DNA from: Deltaproteobacteria bacterium
GTDB taxonomy: Bacteria; Myxococcota_A; UBA9160; UBA6930
Assembly: GCA_016875395.1 (NCBI GenBank)
Contig: VGRF01000010.1
Span: 65,065 to 129,064 of the forward strand
DNA: 64,000 nt
Direction: 5' to 3'
In this document: piece after piece, positions 8,044-38,349 of the stretch
How the letters are laid out: every line of letters begins with the position of its first letter
Position numbering within the stretch: position 1 is the first letter of the stretch
Translations under genes and position numbers: made by a program
The notes under the pieces: model-generated
Database searches by the model: none
What the model was told of the DNA's origin: nothing
The model's input: the letters and a program-made list of their open reading frames with translations, nothing else

Positions 8044-8535
8044 ATGCACCGCACCGCACTCTTTTCGCTCGCCGCCGCCGGGCTGCTCGCCGCAACGCTC
8101 GCCTTCGCCTTCGCCGACGCCGCGAGCGTCGACTACCAGACCGGCTATCGCGAGTGGACCCACGTGAAGTCGATGGTGATCGAAGAGGGCCACCCGCTCT
8201 TCGCGAGCTTCGGCGGCATTCACCACCTCTACGCGAACGAGAAGGCGATCGAGGGCTACCGCGCGGGCAAGTTTCCCGACGGCGCGGTGATCGCGTTCGA
8301 TCTGCTCGAAGCCGCGCGCGCCGAAGGCGCCGTGACCGAGGGCGCACGCAAAGTGCTCGGCGTGATGCAGAAGGACGCCGCGAAGTTCGCTGCCACCGGC
8401 GGCTGGGGCTTCGAAGGATTCGCGGGCGGCGACGCGACGAAGCGCGCCGTCGGCGCGAACGCGGTGGAAGCTTGTTATGGCTGCCACGCGTCGCAGGCGG
8501 ATCGCGACTACGTGTTCAGCGCGTGGCGCGAGTGA
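8044..8535 (+). CDS. Cytochrome P460-family haem protein
   Basis: Has a signal peptide and a single C-terminal CYGCH haem-c motif. YREWTHVKS...GIHHLYAN is typical of P460. Confidence 0.7.
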   Translation: MHRTALFSLAAAGLLAATLAFAFADAASVDYQTGYREWTHVKSMVIEEGHPLFASFGGIHHLYANEKAIEGYRAGKFPDGAVIAFDLLEAARAEGAVTEGARKVLGVMQKDAAKFAATGGWGFEGFAGGDATKRAVGANAVEACYGCHASQADRDYVFSAWRE

Positions 8536-30577: not shown

Positions 30578-33500
30578 GGATCGCGGACATCTCGATCGAG
30601 CGGCCGGTGTTCGCCGCGATGCTGAACCTCGGCCTCGTCGTGTTGGGGCTGATCTCGCTCTCGCGCCTCGAGCTGAAGCTCGAGCCCGACATCGACTTCC
30701 CGTTCGCGAACGTGGTCACCGAGCTGCGCGGCGCATCGCCGGAAACCGTCGAGCGCGAAGTCACCGACGTGCTCGAGGAGCAGCTCAACGCGATCGAGGG
30801 CGTGAAGGAGATCAACTCCACCTCGGAGCAAGGTCTCTCGCAGGTCCACGTCGAGTTTCGGCTCGGCTACGACATCGACACGAAGGTTCAGGAGATCCGC
30901 GACAAGGTCGCGCTCGCCCGGCCCGAGCTGCCCGTCGACGTCGAGGATCCGATCGTCCAGAAGTTCGATCTCTCGGCGATCGAGTTCATGACGCTCGTGC
31001 TGGGCGGGCCGATCGGGCAGCGCGAGCTAACGGATTTCGCCGAGAACACGGTGAAGGAGCGGCTCGAGCGCATTCCCGGCGTCGGCGGCGTGCGCATTCG
31101 CGGCGGGCGCGAGCGCGAAGTCCGCGTGTGGCTCGATCCGCTGAAGCTCGCGGGCTACGGCCTCGCGATCGAGGATGTCGCGACCACGCTGCGGCTCGAG
31201 AACGCGGAGCTCGCGAGCGGGCGCATCGAGGGCGCGGCGCGCGAGTGGTCCGTAACGACTCAGGGCAAGGCGCGCACGGTCGACGAGTTCGGCGCGCTGA
31301 TCATCGCCGAGCGCGCTGGCCGCCCGATCCAGCTGCGCGACGTCGCTCTGGTCGAAGACGGCATGGCGGAGGAACGCAGCGTCGCGCGTGTGAATGGCGA
31401 GCCCGGCGTCTCGATCGACATTCAGCAGCAGAGCGGATCCGACCTCGTGCTGGCCGCGCGGCTCGTGCGCAAGGAGCTCGAGAGCATTCGCGCCGTGGCG
31501 CCGCCGGGCGTCGAAGTGAGCGTGCTGCGCGACTACGCGCGCATCGTCGAGGACCAGATCTCCTCCGTGCTGCTCGACATGCTGCTCGCCGCCGCGCTGG
31601 TCGTCGCCGTCGTACTGATCTTCATGCGCAACTGGCGCTCCACGCTGATCGCGTCCCTCGCGATCCCCGCGAGCGTGATCGCGAGCTTCACCGTCCTGTA
31701 CGCCACCGGTCTCTCGCTCAACAACATGACGCTGATGGCGCTCTCGCTCGCGGTCGGCCTCGTGATCGACGACGCGATCGTCGTGCTCGAATCGATCTTC
31801 CGCCGCGTCGAGCACGGCGAGGATTCGAAGAGTGCGGCGCTCACGGGCACGCGCGAAGTCGCGCTCGCGGTGATCTCGACCACGCTCGCCGTGTGCGGCG
31901 TGTTCGTTCCGGTGCTCTTCATGACGAGCACGATGGGCCGCTACTTCCTCGAGTTCGCGGTCTCGGTGACGGTCGCGGTGCTGATGTCCGCGCTCGTCGC
32001 GCTCACGCTCACGCCCATGCTCGCGAGCAAGGTGCTGCGCCAAACGCCGAAGGAGAGCGCGTTGTTCCTCGCGTGCGAACGCATGCTGCGGTGGCTGGAG
32101 CGCGGCTACGCGCGCGTGCTCGGTTGGTCGCTGCAGCACAAGCTCGCGACGGTGGCGATCGCGCTCGTCACCGTGTTCAGCGGCTGCGGCGTGTTCAGCA
32201 CGCTGCCGACGAACTACTTCACGCAGGACGATCTCGGCGAAGCGTTCGTGACGGCGAAGCTGCCGATCGGCACTCCGCTCTCGGTGACGGACGCGACGCT
32301 GCGCGCGATGGAGGCGGCGGTCGAGTCGCATCCCTACGTGGTGACGACGTTCGCGACGGCGGGCGACGAGCTGCAGTACCAGCCGCACAGAGCGCGCATG
32401 AACTTGTTACTGACCGAGAAGACCGAGCGCGACGTCCCGATCGCCGAGACCTTCGAGGAGATTCGGCAGCGCGTCGCCGCGGTGCTGCCGCCGGGCACCG
32501 AGATCGGCGTGTCGCACCCGATGTACGCGAGCTCGAGCGGCGAGGGCTACAACGACCTCGCCTACTCGGTGCAGGGCCCCGACCTCGAGCAGATCGCGCG
32601 CTACGCGACTGCGATTCGCGCAAAGATGGAGGCGGATCCGGACTTCATCGACGTGCGCTGGTCGCACGAGACGGGCCGCCCACAGATCACGCTCGACATC
32701 GATCGCGGGCGCGCCGCGGACATCGGCGTCTCCTCCGTCGCGCTCGGCCGAACGCTGCGCACGCTGCTCGCAGGTGAGGAGGTCGGCTCGTTCGAGGACC
32801 GCGGCGAGCGCTACGACGTGCGCGTGCAAGTGCTGCCCGAGTACCGCGACGATCCGAGCAAGCTCGACTTGATCCGTGTGCGCTCGATGCGCGGAGAGCT
32901 CGTGCCGATCACCAGCGCGGCGATCGTGCGAAGCGAGAGCGGCGCGGTCGAAGTGCGCCGCCACAACCGCGCGCGCATGATCCGCATCTACTCGAGCAAG
33001 GCCCCAGACACTTCGCTCGACGCCGCGATGCGGAAGATCGAGCAGTTCGGCAAAGAAGTGGGCGTCGCGCCGCCCTACTCGCTCGATGCCGGCGGGGCCG
33101 CCGAATCGCAAGCGGAGTCCGCCGCCGACCTCGGTTTCGCGCTCGTGCTCGCGATGATCTCGATCTACATGATCCTCGCGTCGCTGTTCAACTCGGTGAC
33201 GCATCCGCTCACGATCATGACCTCGGCGCCGCTCTCGTTCGTCGGCGGCTTCTTCGCGCTGAAAGTCAGCGGCATGTCCTTCGACATCATGGGCGCGATG
33301 GGCCTGCTCGTGCTGATGGGCCTCGTGATGAAGAACGGCATCCTGCTCGTCGACTACACGAACCAGCTGCGCGGCGAAGGCATGTCACGCGACGAAGCCA
33401 TCTTGCGCGCCGGCCCCGTGCGCATGCGCCCGGTCCTCATGACCAGCGCCGCGCTCGTGCTGGGCCTGTTGCCGATGGCGCTCTCGAACGCGACCGGCGC

Positions 33501-33696
33501 CGAGTTCCGCGCACCGATGGCCGTGATCGTGATCGGCGGGCTCGCCACTTCCACCGCGCTCACGCTGATGGTGGTGCCCGTGTTCTACGCGCTCATCGAC
33601 GGCATGAGCGCGCGCGTGCGCGGCTCGATCTCGCGAGCGCGCGCGTCGCTGCGCGGCCGCGACGAGGAGCGCGCGCGCCTCGACGTCTCGCCCTGA
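30574..33696 (+). CDS. RND efflux transporter permease (AcrB/HAE1 type)
   Basis: GTG at 30574 overlaps the MFP stop. IERPVFAAMLNLGLVVLG, 12 TM helices, two large loops, about 1040 aa. Confidence 0.9.
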   Translation: MRIADISIERPVFAAMLNLGLVVLGLISLSRLELKLEPDIDFPFANVVTELRGASPETVEREVTDVLEEQLNAIEGVKEINSTSEQGLSQVHVEFRLGYDIDTKVQEIRDKVALARPELPVDVEDPIVQKFDLSAIEFMTLVLGGPIGQRELTDFAENTVKERLERIPGVGGVRIRGGREREVRVWLDPLKLAGYGLAIEDVATTLRLENAELASGRIEGAAREWSVTTQGKARTVDEFGALIIAERAGRPIQLRDVALVEDGMAEERSVARVNGEPGVSIDIQQQSGSDLVLAARLVRKELESIRAVAPPGVEVSVLRDYARIVEDQISSVLLDMLLAAALVVAVVLIFMRNWRSTLIASLAIPASVIASFTVLYATGLSLNNMTLMALSLAVGLVIDDAIVVLESIFRRVEHGEDSKSAALTGTREVALAVISTTLAVCGVFVPVLFMTSTMGRYFLEFAVSVTVAVLMSALVALTLTPMLASKVLRQTPKESALFLACERMLRWLERGYARVLGWSLQHKLATVAIALVTVFSGCGVFSTLPTNYFTQDDLGEAFVTAKLPIGTPLSVTDATLRAMEAAVESHPYVVTTFATAGDELQYQPHRARMNLLLTEKTERDVPIAETFEEIRQRVAAVLPPGTEIGVSHPMYASSSGEGYNDLAYSVQGPDLEQIARYATAIRAKMEADPDFIDVRWSHETGRPQITLDIDRGRAADIGVSSVALGRTLRTLLAGEEVGSFEDRGERYDVRVQVLPEYRDDPSKLDLIRVRSMRGELVPITSAAIVRSESGAVEVRRHNRARMIRIYSSKAPDTSLDAAMRKIEQFGKEVGVAPPYSLDAGGAAESQAESAADLGFALVLAMISIYMILASLFNSVTHPLTIMTSAPLSFVGGFFALKVSGMSFDIMGAMGLLVLMGLVMKNGILLVDYTNQLRGEGMSRDEAILRAGPVRMRPVLMTSAALVLGLLPMALSNATGAEFRAPMAVIVIGGLATSTALTLMVVPVFYALIDGMSARVRGSISRARASLRGRDEERARLDVSP

Positions 33697-33714
33697 AGCT
33701 CGAGGAGAGTCGCC

Positions 33715-34407
33715 GTGGAGAAAGTCGTCTACGTGTTGTGGAAGCGTGGCGAAGAGCCGAACGAAGCGTTCAAGCAGCGCTTGTTGGGCGAGACGGGCCC
33801 GCGCCTGCTCGCGCTCGACGTCGAGCGCGTGCAGATCTCGATCGTGGATGACGACGTCGCCGCGGGCGAGAAGCTCCGGCTCGGGAAGATGTCGCCGCCG
33901 AAGGCCGCCTTCGCATCGTTCTGGATCGAGCAGTCGCAAGACCGCGCGCCGGTGGAGCGCGTGCTCGCGGGCACCTGCGGCGCATTCGCGGGCTACCTCG
34001 TCGTCGAGTCGCGCCCGCTCGTGAACCGCAGCGCGCGCGCCGGCGCGCGCACGCCGGGCTTCGCGCTCGTCACGTGCATCGAGCCTGCAGACGGCCTCCC
34101 GTACGCCGAGTTCCTGCGCATCTGGCACGAGCAGCAGCGCGCCTGCGCGATCGAGACGCAGAGCACGTTCGGCTACGTGCGCAACGAGATCGTGCGAGCG
34201 CTCACGTCGAACGCGCCGAGCTGGGCGGCGATCGTCGAGGAGAATTTTCCGATCGCCGCGCTGAACGACCCCGCCGCGTTCTACGACGCGGTGGGCGATC
34301 CGGCGAAGCTGAAGCGCAACCTGAAGCGCATGATCGACACTTGTCAGGGATTCCTCGCGCAGGAGCGCGTCGAGTCGCACCCGATGAGCGAGTACGTGCT
34401 CTCGTGA
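33715..34407 (+). CDS. Hypothetical protein (possibly tandem EthD-like alpha/beta-barrel)
   Basis: 230-aa ORF with normal amino-acid composition. GTG start. I made no firm motif match. Confidence 0.45.
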   Translation: MEKVVYVLWKRGEEPNEAFKQRLLGETGPRLLALDVERVQISIVDDDVAAGEKLRLGKMSPPKAAFASFWIEQSQDRAPVERVLAGTCGAFAGYLVVESRPLVNRSARAGARTPGFALVTCIEPADGLPYAEFLRIWHEQQRACAIETQSTFGYVRNEIVRALTSNAPSWAAIVEENFPIAALNDPAAFYDAVGDPAKLKRNLKRMIDTCQGFLAQERVESHPMSEYVLS

Positions 34408-34688
34408 TGCGCCTCGTGCTGATCGCGCTCGCGGTGCTCATCGCGCTGCGCATCCTCGCGCGCTTCGCGGCGCGCGAGATCCCGCTCGCGAAGGAGCGCG
34501 ACCCCGAGCGCCCGCGGCCGACGCTCAGCCCCGCGCAGCGCGCCGAGCTCGAGGCGGCACGCGAGCAGGCGCTGCGCGAGGGGCGTCAGATCGACGCGAT
34601 CAAGATCCATCGCGAGCTGACCGGCCTCGGGCTCGCGCAGGCGAAGGACGAGATGGACGAAGCGCGGCGAGACCGCGGCGGGAGCTGA
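34407..34688 (+). CDS. Small membrane-anchored protein with a bL12 (L7/L12) C-terminal-like segment
   Basis: Internal ATG (codon 112) of ORF 34074..34688, overlapping the upstream stop (TGATG). N-terminal TM helix MRLVLIALAVLIALRIL. C-terminus IDAIKIHRELTGLGLAQAKDEMDEA resembles the bL12 helix ..IREVTGLGLKEAKDLV. Confidence 0.5.
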   Translation: MRLVLIALAVLIALRILARFAAREIPLAKERDPERPRPTLSPAQRAELEAAREQALREGRQIDAIKIHRELTGLGLAQAKDEMDEARRDRGGS

Positions 34689-34697
34689 CTTCGCGCA

Positions 34698-34735
34698 CCT
34701 TGAAAATCGAAAGGCAGACTTTCTATTTTCAAGGT
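34698..34735. repeat. 38-bp AT-rich palindromic element, copy A
   Basis: CCTTGAAAATCGAAAGGCAGACTTTCTATTTTCAAGGT. 16-bp arms with one mismatch. Lies 12 nt upstream of the ATPase GTG. Confidence 0.9.
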
Positions 34736-34746
34736 AGGCTCGGCGC

Positions 34747-35934
34747 GTGATCGAACGCCCTCGCCTCCTGCGCGAGCTGCAGACGGCGCTGCGCCGCAGC
34801 CCCGTCGTGGCGCTCGTGGGCCCGCGCCAGTGCGGCAAGACGACGCTCGCGCGCACGCTCGTTCCGCCCGGCTCGCCTCGCTACTTCGACCTGGAGGATC
34901 CCGCGAGCCTCGCGAGCCTCGCCGAGCCGATTACCACGCTGCGTGAGCTGCGCGGCCTGGTCGTCGTCGACGAAGTGCAGCGGCGCCCCGACCTGTTTCC
35001 GGTGCTGCGCGTGCTGGCGGATCGACGCCCGCTCCGCGCGCGCTTTCTGATTCTCGGCAGCGCCTCGCCCGAGTTGTTGCGGCAATCCTCCGAGACACTC
35101 GCGGGACGCATCGAAGTGCTGACGATCGGAGGCTTCGATCTCTCGGAAGTGGGTGAGGACTCGCTCACGCGGCACTGGCGACGCGGCGGCTTCCCTCAGT
35201 CGTTCCTCGCGCGCAGCGAGGGCGACAGCTTCCAGTGGCGAAAGCAGTTCATTCAGACTTTTCTCGAGCGCGACCTCCCGCAGCTCGGCGTGCGCATCCC
35301 GCCGCAGGCGCTGCATCGCTTCTGGGCGATGCTCGCTCACTTCCACGGAAACGTGTGGAACGGCGCCGAGCTCGCACGCTCGCTCGCGTTGAGCCAGCCG
35401 ACCGTGCGCCAGTACCTCGACCTGATGACTGGCCTGTTCATGGTGCGGCAGCTCCTGCCTTGGCACGAGAACCTCGGCAAGCGCCAGGTGAAGGCGCCGA
35501 AGGTGTACGTGCGCGACGCCGGGCTCCTGCACCAACTGCTCGGCATCGCGAGCGACCGCGACCTGCAACGCCACCCCAAGCTCGGCGCGTCGTTCGAGGG
35601 CTACGCGATCGAGGAAGTGCTGCGGGCGGTGAGTCCTGCGCAAGCCTATTTCTGGGCCACGCATTCCGGCGCCGAGCTCGACTTGCTGCTCGTGAAGGGC
35701 GGGCGACGATTCGGCGTCGAGGTGAAGCACGCCGACGCGCCGCGCATCACGCCATCGATGCGCACCGCGATCGACGACCTCGGCCTCGAGCGCGTGACGG
35801 TGATCTATCCCGGCGAGCGCGCCTACGCCCTGTCAGACCGTGTGCACGTGCTCCCGGTCGGCGCTCTTGCCGACGGCGGCGCTACGCAGATCACGAAGTC
35901 CGCCAGGGCGCGTCAGGCGAAACGGAGACCTTGA
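34747..35934 (+). CDS. AAA+ ATPase with C-terminal DUF4143 domain (COG1373-type)
   Basis: Walker A LVGPRQCGKTTL and Walker B VVVDEVQ. The DUF4143-like region reads FLERDL...FWAMLAHFHGNVWNGAELARSL. GTG start. Confidence 0.8.
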   Translation: MIERPRLLRELQTALRRSPVVALVGPRQCGKTTLARTLVPPGSPRYFDLEDPASLASLAEPITTLRELRGLVVVDEVQRRPDLFPVLRVLADRRPLRARFLILGSASPELLRQSSETLAGRIEVLTIGGFDLSEVGEDSLTRHWRRGGFPQSFLARSEGDSFQWRKQFIQTFLERDLPQLGVRIPPQALHRFWAMLAHFHGNVWNGAELARSLALSQPTVRQYLDLMTGLFMVRQLLPWHENLGKRQVKAPKVYVRDAGLLHQLLGIASDRDLQRHPKLGASFEGYAIEEVLRAVSPAQAYFWATHSGAELDLLLVKGGRRFGVEVKHADAPRITPSMRTAIDDLGLERVTVIYPGERAYALSDRVHVLPVGALADGGATQITKSARARQAKRRP

Positions 35935-35966
35935 AAATCGAAAGGCAGACTTTCGATTTTCAAGGT
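35929..35966. repeat. 38-bp AT-rich palindromic element, copy B (perfect hairpin); contains the stop codons of both convergent genes
   Basis: CCTTGAAAATCGAAAGGCAGACTTTCGATTTTCAAGGT. The ATPase ends ...CCT TGA in the left arm and murI ends ...CCT TGA in the right arm on the other strand. Confidence 0.9.
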
Positions 35967-36805
35967 GCTGCCCGCTCGAAGCGCGGCGCCTCGGGCCAGA
36001 ACACTGCCGCGGTGCGCGAGACGTGCGCCGGATCGCCCGTCGTCAGCAGCCGCACTCCGGGCGCTCCGTTCGCGGCGTATTCGGGATGTCGCGCGAGGTA
36101 GTCCTCGAAGCTGTCCGCCACGACCTCGGGTTGCGAGAGGATGCGCACGCCGGCCGGCAGCTTCGCTGCGAACACGTCCTCGACCAGCGAGAAGTGCGTG
36201 CAGCCGAGAATCGCGCGATCGGGTTTGCCGCCACCGAGCTGCGCGGTCATCGCCTTCACCGCGTTCGCGACGATTGCCTCGAGCTCGGCGCGCGGCTGCG
36301 CGTTCTCGATCGCGGCGGCGAGCTCCGAGCACGGCTGCAGCACGATGCGCACGCGTGGACAGCGCTTGAAGATCTCCTCCGCGTACACGCCCGACGCGAT
36401 CGTGCGCGTGGTGCCGAACACCGCGATCACGTCGCGGTTGTTCTTCTGCGGATACTGCGGAGTCGTTACGGCCCACGGCGTCTGCGTCGCCGCCTCGACC
36501 GTCGGCGCCACGATGCCGACCACGTTGCGCCCCGCGTAGCCCGAGCCCGGCAGCCACTTGCGCTGCAGCGTGCGCAGCGCGACCGCCGTGGCGGTGTTGC
36601 AGCCGAGCACGACGAGCTTCGCGCCGAGCGCGAAGAGCCGCGCGACGCCGGCCTGCGTGAACGCGACGATCTCCGCCGACGCGCGATCGCCGTAGGGCGC
36701 GTTGGCGTGATCCCCGAGGTAGAGAAACGCCTGCTGCGGGAAGCGCGAAGAAAGCGCGCGCAGAACTGTTAGGCCGCCGAGCCCGGAGTCGAAGACGCCG
36801 ATCAT
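35960..36805 (-). CDS. murI: Glutamate racemase
   Basis: VFDSGLGGLTV, LVVLGCNTAT and ILGCTHF, with both catalytic Cys motifs. Confidence 0.9.
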   Translation of the reverse strand: MIGVFDSGLGGLTVLRALSSRFPQQAFLYLGDHANAPYGDRASAEIVAFTQAGVARLFALGAKLVVLGCNTATAVALRTLQRKWLPGSGYAGRNVVGIVAPTVEAATQTPWAVTTPQYPQKNNRDVIAVFGTTRTIASGVYAEEIFKRCPRVRIVLQPCSELAAAIENAQPRAELEAIVANAVKAMTAQLGGGKPDRAILGCTHFSLVEDVFAAKLPAGVRILSQPEVVADSFEDYLARHPEYAANGAPGVRLLTTGDPAHVSRTAAVFWPEAPRFERAAP

Positions 36806-38349
36806 GGGGCTTCACTCGGTCGCACATCGCGTGCTTTCACGGCTTCGAAGATCGCACGTGCAAGGACAGGAAACGCCGCCGCCTGGAACTGCGCATCGCC
36901 CATGTAACGCGTGACGATCGCGTCGTTGTCGGCCATGCGCTGCACCATCAGGTCCTCGATCAGCTTGCGCACGCCGAGCTCGAACTTGTCGAGCGGGTTT
37001 GCGCGCGCCGTGTCGATCACGCGCGGATCATTCGATGCCTTCTCTTGGATTTGTTGGAAGAACAGGCGGTCCTCCTCCGTGAACTGCGTGCCGAATCGTT
37101 CGTTCAGCAGCTCGATGATCTCCGAGAGCGGCGCTCGATCTTCCTTCGCCTTGGCGGTGCCCACCTCGCTCGGGCTCTTCACGCCCCACGGCTCGCCCTC
37201 GGCGACGTGGATCGGCCCAGAGAACAGGCGCTCGAGGCGGTAGTACTGAAGCTCGACGTCGTCGCCGAACCGAACTGTGAGGCGCTCGCGCTCATCGCGC
37301 AGGTACGGGAGCAAGAGCTTCCCGAACGAGTAGAGCTTCTCGAGCTCTGGATCGTTCCACGGCAAGACCTGGCTGACGAACGCGTACAGCTTCACGAACG
37401 CCGTTAGCTTCTCGCGGAACTCGCGGCGCGGTTCCTCCTCGAGCCCCTGGAAGCTGTCGACCGCGGGCTGGATGTGCTTCTGCATCTGCGCGTGGTCGGT
37501 CGCTGCGGCCTTCGCCGGCGGCTTGTAGAAGATGCGCGCGAACGCCTCGACTTCGCTCGCGTGGTAGACCTGCGCGAGATCGAGTTCGTGCTTCAGCGCT
37601 TCGAGCTGCGCCGGATCTGACGCCTCCGCGAGGCTGGTCGTGTCGTAGTAGGGCTTGAACGCGCGGTAGATGTTCTCCGCGTCGTTCACGAAATCGAGCA
37701 CGAACGGCGCTTCTTTGCCGCTCGCGGCGCGGTTCAGGCGCGAGAGAGTCTGCACGGCCTGCACGCCATCGAGCCGCTTGTCGACGTACATCGCTTGCAA
37801 GAGCGGCTGATCGAAGCCGGTCTGATACTTGTTCGCGACGAGCAGGATGTTGTAGTCGGGCGAGTCGAAGCGTTCGGGAAGCTGCGACTCGCTGATCGGC
37901 TTACAGCTCACCACGTCGCGATTCATCCCCGGCTCGGTGTACTCCTGGCCGTTCTCGGGATCGCGCACGCTCCCGCTGAACGCGACCAGCGGCCGCACGT
38001 CCGAGTAGCCGTGCTCCGCGATGTACGCCTGGAACGCGCGCATGTAGCGAACCGCGTGCAGGCGCGAAGACGTCACGACCATCGCCTTCGCACGGCCGCC
38101 GAGCTTCGCGCGCACCTTGTTACGGAAGTGCTCGATCATCACCTCCGTCTTCTGCTCCACGTTCACGGGGTGAAGCGTCATGAACTTCGCGAGCGCCTTC
38201 GCCGCCTGGCTCTTCGGCAGCGACGGATCCTCGGCCGCGGTCTTCACGAGGCGGGAGTAGGCCTTGTACGTCGTGTAGTTCGCGAGCACGTCGAGGATGA
38301 ACTCCTCCTCGATCGCCTGGCGCATGCTGTACGTGTGGAACGCCTCGGG
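36802..38349 (-). pseudogene. hsdR: C-terminal half of a type I restriction enzyme HsdR subunit (helicase C-lobe + C-terminal helical domain); N-terminal nuclease/motor half absent
   Basis: ORF 36802..38325 plus in-frame upstream APEAFHTYS. FHTYSMRQAIEEEFILDVLANYTTY, AMVVTSSRLHAVRY (motif IV), ILLVANKYQTGFDQPLL (V) and QTLSRLNR (VI). An in-frame TGA lies about 20 codons upstream of the Met. GC is lower than in the flanks. The stop overlaps the murI ATG (ATGA). Confidence 0.7.

Follow-up and report, generated by a model that had tools for sequence, protein, structure and literature searches.

The 39-nt palindrome that brackets a DUF4143 ATPase gene next to a murI-like gene in the window (the whole 64-kb stretch of DNA analysed) is co-inherited with that ATPase gene across taxa and genomic contexts, and it travels with the gene. 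We propose, with a probability of about 0.5, that the palindrome is a cis-regulatory element of a horizontally spread DUF4143/PDC-S01 ATPase-nuclease gene and not a site of the host locus. In this reading the gene would carry its own promoter-operator, with the ATPase itself as the probable binder, and the downstream copy would have arisen by local duplication and be preserved by selection, as a second site, in four lineages. The PDC-S01 gene family is already known; the cis element is the new part. The features of the locus are the following.

34407..34688, + strand: 93-aa ORF (gene calls) with weak NCBIfam similarity to the C-terminal domain of ribosomal L7/L12; stop codon 8 nt ahead of copy A
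34697..34735, no strand: palindrome copy A; loop 34714-34718 (GCAGA) between the arms 34697-34713 and 34719-34735; proposed promoter-operator of the ATPase gene
34700..34729, + strand: alternative sigma-70-like match in copy A (TTGAAA, 18 nt, TATTTT), the sole promoter-like site in 33500-37500
34735..34740, + strand: TAGGCT, a -10-like box (TAnnnT) that precedes the GTG start by 6 nt and implies a leaderless mRNA
34747..35934, + strand: ATPase-nuclease, 395 aa; AAA_14 P-loop domain, winged-helix region, and PD-(D/E)XK-type region (Pfam DUF4143) at the C-terminus; listed by PADLOC as candidate defence gene PDC-S01
35928..35966, no strand: palindrome copy B, perfect 17-bp arms, loop GCAGA, between the convergent ATPase and murI-like ORFs; provides TGA for both
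35960..36805, - strand: Asp/Glu racemase family ORF (murI-like, 281 aa); Pfam Asp_Glu_race, NCBIfam glutamate racemase at 129.9 bits, below the cut-off

The palindrome pair and the ATPase-nuclease gene

The palindrome reads ACCTTGAAAATCGAAAG-N5-CTTTC(T/G)ATTTTCAAGGT, with copies at 34697-34735 (A) and 35928-35966 (B). Reading of the sequence and pattern searches over the 64 kb find no other copy, where shuffles lead us to expect 0 matches, and thus bear out the sequence-only reading in its claim of a repeat pair found nowhere else. The 5-nt loop that it described also stands; its 38 bp become 39 nt, with one base more on the left, and its 16-bp arms become 17 bp. Copy A does lie just upstream of the ATPase GTG at 34747, at a measured 11 nt and not 12. 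In copy B all 17 of 17 positions pair, and in copy A 16 of 17, the exception being a C/T mismatch at 34708/34724. A hand count of letters gives 15 G or C in the 39 bases (38%), against 65-75% in the surrounding windows. RNA folding assigns -25.9 kcal/mol to copy A and -31.8 kcal/mol to copy B (z = -4 to -6 relative to shuffles), strong predicted hairpins on both strands, and folding as single-stranded DNA gives -13.3 and -18.2 kcal/mol (z = -6.8 and -9.2). Both copies are present in 10/10 fetched metagenome contigs with an identical ATPase. No Rfam family matches the palindrome, at gathering or permissive thresholds.

The protein matches Pfam AAA_14 (1.4e-21, 77.2 bits) and DUF4143 (2.7e-43, 147.9 bits), both above cut-offs, as well as the PADLOC PDC-S01 model PDLC04790 (E = 7.7e-87); by these profile matches, the gene belongs to the PDC-S01 / DUF4143 ATPase family. 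In 35 homologues, the window protein included, the Walker A residues G30, K31 and T33 and the Walker B residues D75 and E76 are invariant, as are the D...E-x-K nuclease residues E310, D312, E325 and K327. No relative of solved structure was found by sequence. The AAA+ core of the modelled protein resembles the archaeal ATPases 2qen and 2fna and Orc1/Cdc6 (2qby), which are among the best Foldseek matches. The region that we annotate as winged helix shows several weak, sub-threshold HTH matches at residues 200-229, and the structure model has low confidence at residues 138-280; a Spirosoma homologue, 44% identical, matches HTH_5 with 27.8 bits (cut-off 22). DUF4143/PDC-S01 ATPase-nucleases are reported to be among the commonest candidate defence genes of bacteria and archaea, and we know of no description of their mechanism, ligand or regulation. 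In the searchable papers on DUF4143, COG1373, PDC-S01 or the motif, we found no palindrome, promoter or DNA site tied to the gene. PMC3424549 enters DUF4143 as a PD-(D/E)XK family whose function is unknown, and PDC-S01 ranks fourth in frequency among defence candidates, awaiting experimental validation as most PDCs do (PMC12988326).

Linkage across phyla and promoter layout

Searched for as an exact pattern across 185,579 species genomes, the core GAAAATCGAAAG-N5-CTTTCNATTTTC is present at 26 loci in about 12 phyla. There is one locus per genome, a count that includes five chromosome-scale records (3.2-5.9 Mb), and three further matches, all in Clostridia, have other loop lengths. At 14 of the 26 core loci an ATPase of 53-73% identity starts just downstream, and a metagenome scan adds 50 more loci with the same link between palindrome and ATPase. 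In the majority of 41 distinct homologous loci, 15-19 nt separate the end of the palindrome from the start codon; when homologues are picked by protein alone, all six (6/6) have a palindrome that ends 15-16 nt before it. Homologues on plasmids, 44-48% identical, have related palindromes (CCTTGCAA...TTGCAAGG, or a variant) directly against the ATG. Between loci in unrelated contexts, DNA homology sets in at the palindrome's left edge, at -45 to -52. These data show that palindrome and gene are linked across phyla, with the palindrome at a fixed position before the start codon.

The palindrome also occurs alone. About 18 distinct "solo" palindromes have unrelated genes as neighbours, and the 1-14 kb covered at each locus contains no ATPase. 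A search of phage and plasmid records yields essentially nothing beyond one Thioflavicoccus plasmid site, a variant solo palindrome adjoining an IS66 element, and a search of 2.9 million viral contigs yields no match. One Comamonadaceae locus is found in three states: palindrome-ATPase-palindrome (L004), palindrome-ATPase (L021) and palindrome only (L020). The comparison of L020 with L021 shows a replacement and not a clean excision, and an ATPase origin for the 44-45 nt filler of L020 could not be demonstrated. Deletions start at the palindrome edge repeatedly, in L054, L073 and L020. As to selection on the solo palindromes, we discarded the comparison of L007 with L023 (arms 24/24 identical, flanks 71-90%) as invalid, both loci having been retrieved by the exact pattern.

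Of 33 homologous loci, 25 have a TAnnnT box 5-8 nt ahead of the start, where 2.5 are expected from shuffles, and 1 has a Shine-Dalgarno-like motif. The distance from the palindrome end to the TAnnnT box is 4 nt. The position of the box together with the missing Shine-Dalgarno indicates that the ATPase gene has a putative leaderless promoter, overlapped by the palindrome. The alternative sigma-70-like match within copy A arises from the G-to-T change that separates A from B; this CTTTCTATTTTC variant is also present in L092. Upstream, relatives that have the ATPase and relatives that lack it share the 93-aa ORF as syntenic neighbour on the left, with homologous small ORFs in L040, L041 and L097.

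The arms of the palindrome are nearly invariant. Eleven columns never change and another 10 reach a conservation of at least 90%, while the 5-nt loop varies freely; across phyla, each arm preserves the sequence of its inner 12 bp and not just their pairing. The outer stem pairs covary, with symmetric A:T to T:A flips occurring at least 5 times on the ATPase tree and intermediates being rare. No winged-helix residue co-varies with these outer-pair flips, and no clean winged-helix column stands out when the columns of the ATPase alignment are tested, by mutual information, against the A:T/T:A state of pair 7/39. Symmetric flips that lack a co-varying protein residue suggest that base pairing itself, as a hairpin or a cruciform, is under selection, something that a simple dimer-operator model does not predict.

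We propose that copy A sits directly upstream of a -10 box that would drive a leaderless mRNA, so that it would span roughly -12 to -50 of the promoter. At that position it may act as the operator for a protein that travels with the palindrome, and the most likely binder would be the winged-helix region of the ATPase itself. Such self-binding could give the gene a host-independent autoregulation, presumably repression, of a potentially toxic nuclease.

Copy B and the murI locus

The arrangement palindrome-ATPase-palindrome is found beside murI in L041/L042 and L097, and neither the gene nor the palindrome is found there in L040, L043 and L045/L046. With three relatives having the ATPase beside murI and three not having it, the gene is accessory and varies among relatives, as had been claimed from the window alone. 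The claim that the palindromes are tied to the ATPase unit holds as well, in that they are specific to the gene unit and absent at murI where the gene is absent.

The cassette inserted at a pre-existing hairpin, also put forward in the sequence-only reading, is not supported by this comparison. The murI of the ATPase-less relatives ends in FERA*, FEHA* or FERP*, with a stop codon of its own, and there is no hairpin at that end, so that no pre-existing site is seen. Three more observations oppose an insertion site: across phyla, each homologue examined has the upstream palindrome as a 5' element of the ATPase gene itself; the loops of A and B are alike within one locus; and gene calls find no integrase, intI, attI or transposase within 10 kb either side of the locus. 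The trees of ATPase and murI are congruent, the element being stable in vertical descent. L040, from which the ATPase has been lost, contains no intact palindrome. Its 73-nt intergenic region contains a 20/24 match to the L041 ATPase 3' end and a GGAAGCTTCCGATACTCGAGAG stretch that look like relics; this alignment is no better than shuffles, 47 of 300 of which reach its score, and is suggestive only.

Copy B contains the CCT-TGA end of the ATPase ORF (35929-35934) and, on the other strand, that of the murI-like ORF (35960-35965). The sequence and the ORFs thus agree with the earlier claim that copy B supplies both ends, which it happens to do because each arm reads CCT-TGA. Relative to the C-termini of its relatives, the murI-like ORF has a 2-3 residue extension into copy B, with AAP* as its last residues. 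The sharing of stop codons is incidental, since in L097 murI and the ATPase each terminate outside the palindrome; the same shared-stop geometry recurs independently in L063.

Copy B is kept at the same place in L041/L042 and L097. Its arms are 88-97% identical among the window, L041 and L097 (hand count), where the whole locus is at about 77% and the loops and flanks have diverged, and L097 presents a symmetric double change, GAATAT/ATATTC, in both of its copies. The likeness of the A and B loops within a locus points to local duplication or gene conversion, and not to recombination with an unrelated resident site. In total, copy B appears in four lineages, the Myxococcota lineage of the window and three others, and we call the bracketing independent. 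It is absent from most ATPase loci, in about 20 lineages, so a second site is not required. A position between convergent genes is observed in the window clade, L063 and L047; a convergent neighbour is found in 3 of 4 lineages with copy B and in about 6 of 19 without it, a difference that is not significant. In our proposal, copy B would be a local duplicate of copy A, retained by selection at the gene's 3' end. It could offer a second binding site, used either to form a loop or, as a roadblock or insulator, to keep the convergent transcripts of the ATPase and murI apart.

Alternative readings and known systems

The palindromes could instead be insulating RNA hairpins, each a bidirectional terminator or an RNA-stabilising hairpin, with copy A stopping read-through from the upstream acrB operon and copy B ending the ATPase and convergent murI transcripts. 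The strong folding on both strands, the place of copy B between convergent genes in three cases and the covariation of stem pairs, which fits a selected structure, all favour such a role, as does the layout of A-tract, stem and T-tract (GAAAA-TCGAAAG-loop-CTTTCGA-TTTTC), which recalls that of bidirectional terminators. We nevertheless regard it as unlikely: a consensus terminator scan calls neither copy, the stem is AT-rich with its T-run inside and not after it, the covarying outer pairs lie beyond the T-tract, and the association of copy B with a convergent neighbour is not significant. A near-invariant stem sequence across phyla is also unexpected for a terminator, which needs pairing only. 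The same scan result speaks against the generic terminator offered as an alternative in the sequence-only reading, and the dispersed REP offered beside it is contradicted by the one locus per genome of the species scan and by both window copies being at one gene. A core shared by many phyla at one locus per genome is not a REP. Palindromic shape and size are all that a REP-like repeat or generic terminator unrelated to the ATPase would account for, and given the tight linkage to one gene family we count that reading as refuted.

A modified version of the earlier cassette idea, a small mobile or self-excising unit whose palindromes would be recombination ends and whose hairpin or cruciform would be acted upon by the PD-(D/E)XK nuclease of the ATPase or by a host enzyme, would make the solo palindromes empty or excised sites. 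It can appeal to the existence of solo palindromes, to bracketing in four independent lineages, to the three states of the Comamonadaceae locus, to selected pairing, and to homology between contexts and deletions that both start exactly at the palindrome edge. Yet most loci have the upstream copy only, the ATPase-less relatives of the window genome retain no solo palindrome, and the Comamonadaceae change is a replacement. Alike loops in A and B oppose integration at unrelated resident sites, and the vertical stability with congruent trees, the lack of a nearby recombinase and the lack of viral matches weigh in the same direction, which leaves the cassette slightly less likely again than the RNA hairpins. 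A structural promoter switch independent of the ATPase, in which a supercoiling-driven cruciform or the binding of a nucleoid protein makes the leaderless promoter sensitive to topology or silencing, agrees with the AT-rich island in GC-rich DNA, with DNA hairpin energies of -13 and -18 kcal/mol, and with a symmetry maintained where no protein residue co-varies. It is improbable in view of the inner 12 bp of each arm, conserved in sequence across phyla with differing nucleoid proteins. We give equally long odds to the palindrome being a DNA hairpin or cruciform recognised and processed by the AAA+/PD-(D/E)XK protein, where palindrome-ATPase, with or without the second palindrome, would form a hairpin-bounded selfish or defence module that has no conventional recombinase. 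The protein would then guard, cut or recombine its own flanking structure, and this would explain the bracketing copies, the solo palindromes, the edge deletions and the selection on pairing in spite of a site upstream of the transcription start.

Under the preferred reading, a cis-regulatory element carried by the gene, the PDC-S01 family gains an exact and conserved partner on the DNA, a 39-bp palindrome that has a defined consensus and lies at a fixed place in a promoter of candidate leaderless layout. The palindrome becomes a sequence flag for annotating DUF4143/PDC-S01 genes and their remnants, and the apparent mobile-cassette or REP interpretation of the murI locus is removed. Selected base pairing, copies 3' of the gene and solo palindromes still leave room for a mechanism based on DNA structure.

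Among known systems, the C protein and C-box of restriction-modification have palindromic operators that overlap the leaderless promoter of the regulator, travel with a mobile defence module and allow host-independent expression. The window palindrome is similar in that it would overlap a leaderless promoter and co-transfers with a defence-type gene. It differs in its presumed binder, a domain of a large ATPase-nuclease where the C-box has a small dedicated HTH protein, and in its form, a single palindrome with 17-bp arms and a free 5-nt centre that has a second, 3' copy in some lineages. Archaeal Orc1/Cdc6 proteins (AAA+ plus winged-helix) are encoded beside AT-rich inverted recognition repeats (ORB). 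Here too an AAA+ protein, with a putative winged-helix region, has AT-rich inverted repeats beside its own gene, and 2qby is a Foldseek match, but the window protein has a C-terminal nuclease-type domain, there is no origin evidence, and its position beside murI varies among relatives. The hairpin ends of REP/RAYT and IS200/IS605 elements share the 20-40 nt palindrome, the conserved stem, the covarying pairs and the bracketing of a single gene. REP/RAYT elements, however, are present in tens to hundreds of copies and not at one locus per genome, and the gene bracketed here is AAA_14/DUF4143, not a Y1/HUH transposase, mostly with one copy at a fixed promoter position. Finally, integron attC cassettes likewise combine a single accessory ORF with an imperfect palindrome able to fold as a hairpin. 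In this locus there is no intI or attI within 10 kb either side, and inspection of the repeat finds no GTTRRRY core sites; and whereas attC lies 3' of a promoterless ORF, the copy common to the ATPase loci is on the 5' side of its ORF and brings a promoter-like box with it.

Palindrome pair and the gene it brackets

Two copies of a palindromic 39-nt direct repeat, ACCTTGAAAATCGAAAG-GCAGA-CTTTC(T/G)ATTTTCAAGGT, are present in the window, one 5' (copy A) and one 3' (copy B) of a gene for an AAA_14/DUF4143 ATPase-nuclease.

Features of the ATPase locus in the window
34697-34735, copy A, with one C/T mismatch in the arms
34735-34740, TAnnnT box, TAGGCT
34747-35934, ATPase ORF of 395 aa (Pfam AAA_14 and DUF4143), with a GTG start 11 nt past copy A
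35928-35966, copy B, with perfect 17-bp arms
35960-36805, minus strand, Asp/Glu racemase family ORF (murI-like), convergent with the ATPase ORF and ending at 35960

The element has a G+C content of 38% (letter count) against 65-75% in the DNA around it, and both copies fold much more stably than shuffled controls, as RNA and as DNA. There is no third copy in the window at up to 3 mismatches, either of the whole repeat or of the 17-nt arm (0 expected by chance). A CCT-TGA inside copy B ends both the ATPase and the murI-like ORFs. The palindrome pair and its shared stops had been described correctly from the sequence alone, except that the repeat is 39 nt and not 38, with arms of 17 bp. The convergent ORF is best named an Asp/Glu racemase family protein, and it is probably murI; against the NCBIfam glutamate racemase model it scores 129.9 bits, below the cut-off of 146.65 bits. 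Of the Rfam families just one matches the window, a TPP riboswitch (RF00059; 49343-49440, plus strand) with 60.2 bits, above the gathering score.

PADLOC models assign the ATPase to PDC-S01 (E = 7.7e-87), a candidate defence system of a single gene. No relative with a solved structure is detectable by sequence. In a structure model of medium quality (pLDDT 67), the AAA+ core and a C-terminal alpha/beta domain are confident and the helical middle is poorly resolved; Foldseek ranks 2qen and 2fna, both archaeal AAA+ ATPases, highest for this model, with clamp loaders and Orc1/Cdc6 next. The Walker A residues G30, K31 and T33, the Walker B residues D75 and E76, and the nuclease-type residues E310, D312, E325 and K327 are invariant in 35 homologues. 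The middle region of a Spirosoma homologue (44% identical), labelled an ArsR-family regulator by its depositors, has an ArsR-type HTH match above threshold, and the equivalent position of the window protein has several weak HTH matches. DUF4143 is listed as a PD-(D/E)XK family without an assigned function (PMC3424549), and PDC-S01 is described as the fourth commonest defence candidate, still unvalidated (PMC12988326). The searchable literature has no mention of a DNA motif tied to a DUF4143/PDC-S01 gene.

A motif that travels with the ATPase gene

We scanned one genome for each of 185,579 species with an exact pattern for the inner core only, GAAAATCGAAAG-N3-8-CTTTCNATTTTC. The scan yields 29 loci, 26 of them with a 5-nt loop, distributed over Acidobacteriota, Pseudomonadota, Planctomycetota, Verrucomicrobiota, Chlorobiota, Chloroflexota, Nitrospirota, Elusimicrobiota, Ignavibacteria, Bacteroidota and others. 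No genome has more than one locus, five chromosome-scale records of 3.2-5.9 Mb included, and an ATPase 53-73% identical begins directly downstream in 14/26. A metagenome scan adds 50 loci with the same pattern. Because all these loci had been chosen by their palindrome, we picked six more homologues by protein similarity alone (67-82% identity); in all six a palindrome, with variant arms in some, stops 15-16 nt short of the start codon. Homologues from plasmids at an identity of 44-48% (Mesorhizobium, Rhizobium, Octadecabacter, Acidithiobacillus, Granulicella, Spirosoma) have recognisably related palindromes, mostly CCTTGCAA...TTGCAAGG, abutting the ATG, and homologues at 32-33% have none. Between loci of unrelated context, DNA homology sets in at -45 to -52, where the palindrome has its left edge, and stops 25-190 nt short of the stop codon. 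A search of 2.9 million viral contigs gives no match to the motif, and phage and plasmid records give essentially none. Gene linkage across phyla, one locus per genome, the homology edge and the viral absence together refute the idea, offered as an alternative in the sequence-only reading, of a REP or dispersed terminator. The palindrome belongs to the ATPase gene and not to the locus.

Four of the homologues at 44-48% identity (L101, L102, L106 and L107) are on conjugative plasmids, each with a related palindrome at the start codon and with replication, partition or recombinase genes as neighbours (RepA, RepC/ScpB, integrase, recombinase). The Thioflavicoccus mobilis plasmid pTHIMO01 (L105, 2500-2540) has a variant solo palindrome, AACCTTGCAAATCGACAG-ATGTA-CTTTCGATTTGCATGGTT, with a ParDE toxin-antitoxin pair on one side, an IS66 element on the other and no ATPase nearby. 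In two loci, L071 and L099 (2260-3249), a few kb separate the main ATPase from a second, distant DUF4143 ATPase. The L071 paralogue (34% identical) has an AT-rich palindrome of another sequence, AAATTCGCATTT-TA-AAATGCGAAATT (~8320-8400, minus strand), a hint that palindromes particular to each subfamily may be general in the DUF4143 ATPase family.

Presence, duplication and truncation at the locus

By its murI protein the window comes from a Myxococcota ("Deltaproteobacteria") MAG. Relatives of the window differ in whether they have the ATPase, and its gene is accessory, as had been proposed. The order small ORF-palindrome-ATPase-palindrome-murI is found in L041/L042 (murI 83%, ATPase 78% identical to the window) and L097 (81% and 79%), and neither ATPase nor palindrome is at the locus in L040 (86-88%), L043 (83-84%) and L045/L046 (81%). 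The murI and ATPase trees are congruent, pointing to a single acquisition in an ancestor and later losses, although the murI tree is poorly resolved. In the ATPase-less relatives murI ends in FERA*, FEHA* or FERP*; in the window (FERAAP*) and L041 (FERVVAP*) it reaches 2-3 codons further into the palindrome. In L097 both stops lie outside the palindrome, so stop sharing is a lineage-specific by-product of a CCT-TGA in each arm, though the shared-stop geometry recurs independently in L063. Also beside murI, its start overlapped by 4 nt, is a 507-aa ORF (36802-38325, minus strand) with only a C-terminal T1R_D3-like/HsdR C-terminal domain, the helicase and nuclease parts missing; relatives have a Cys/Met-metabolism gene and a small ORF at this position, which makes it a second variable spot.

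Directly downstream of the ORF, at -2 to +46 nt from the stop, a second palindrome occurs in the window clade, in L004 (Rhodoferax), in L063 and in L047 (low GC, ATPase only 38% identical), four independent lineages in all; about 20 others lack it. L047 (5191-5294; 35% GC genome) also has two tandem upstream palindromes, the distal one well preserved and the proximal one degenerate and abutting the ATG. Copy B arms in the window clade are 88-97% identical between species (our own count) against a locus average of ~77%, with scrambled flanks and loops. The loops of A and B in one locus match at 21/30 positions, while loops between loci are unrelated, and in L097 both copies have the symmetric change GAATAT/ATATTC. 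Copy B is thus a duplicate of A made locally, or its partner in gene conversion, and no resident hairpin of unrelated origin. It may act as a second binding site, roadblock or terminator; convergent neighbours have no significant tie to it.

Integration into a pre-existing site would predict the reverse of such local duplication. The proposal of a cassette inserted at a resident hairpin is not supported, since the relatives without the ATPase have no palindrome and so show no pre-existing site. That the palindromes are the ends of a hairpin-bounded mobile cassette is quite doubtful: there is no integrase or transposase within 10 kb on either side of the locus. A Comamonadaceae locus upstream of pepP has three states, palindrome-ATPase-palindrome (L004), palindrome-ATPase (L021) and palindrome only (L020). 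Between L021 (3710-4930) and L020 (3333-3420), 1,173 nt are replaced by a 44-45 nt filler, with the last three ATPase codons kept; this is replacement, not clean excision.

L054, L073, L049/62/88, L078 and L003 have internal deletions or a palindrome fused to the last 60-80 ATPase codons, with the PD-(D/E)XK core (fusions at L054 376-651, L073 487-696 and L049/L062/L088). The fused frame is open in two diverged loci with no obvious start codon. These fusions could be recurrent deletions from the palindrome edge or a retained mini-gene; the truncated loci may reflect the decay of a gene that is costly to keep, or may hint at breakage promoted by the palindrome. Solo palindromes, about 18 distinct ones retrieved by exact pattern, lie between unrelated housekeeping genes (neighbours include flgH/hisIE, lysS, pepP and molybdopterin oxidoreductase genes); the 1-14 kb available per locus contain no ATPase remnant.

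Pairing, promoter layout and a proposed operator

In an alignment of 41 distinct upstream copies, 11 columns do not vary and another 10 are conserved to at least 90%, and the 5-nt centre is unconstrained. The 17-pair stem is paired in 92% of cells. Two-sided changes occur in 10/17 pairs (34 cells, against 12.2 +/- 2.6 in shuffles, with 0/500 shuffles reaching 34), and slid controls collapse. This covariation is not an ascertainment artefact, because the outer pairs were absent from the search patterns. Pair 7/39 switches between A:T and T:A at least 5 times on the ATPase tree, with rare T|T and C|T intermediates; no winged-helix residues were found that track these flips. Given the near-invariant columns and the covarying outer pairs, the inner half-sites look sequence-read and the stem base looks constrained by pairing.

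A TAnnnT box follows 4 nt after the palindrome and in 25/33 loci stands 5-8 nt (mode 6) ahead of the start codon (2.5 expected from shuffles), and only 1/33 has a Shine-Dalgarno-like motif. This is the signature of a leaderless mRNA, and copy A should therefore not be part of the ATPase mRNA. The right outer arm TGgTA of CCATG...CATGG variants resembles an extended -10.

The best-supported mechanism, to which we give a probability of about 0.5, is an operator that the gene brings with it on a leaderless promoter and that the ATPase's own winged-helix region probably binds. The pairing constraint exceeds what a plain dimer operator predicts and keeps hairpin or cruciform models alive. RNA insulator hairpins are unlikely. 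A cruciform switch without protein dependence, to which the folding as DNA is congenial and the seemingly sequence-read half-sites are not, we regard as the least probable of these readings. The palindrome finding is real and wider than could be seen from one sequence: a very widespread and uncharacterised family of ATPase-nucleases has this conserved palindrome close to its promoter, and the window lineage has it duplicated 3' of the gene. The leaderless layout would put the palindrome at roughly -12 to -50, across the spacer and -35 region, the usual binding place of repressors or class II activators.
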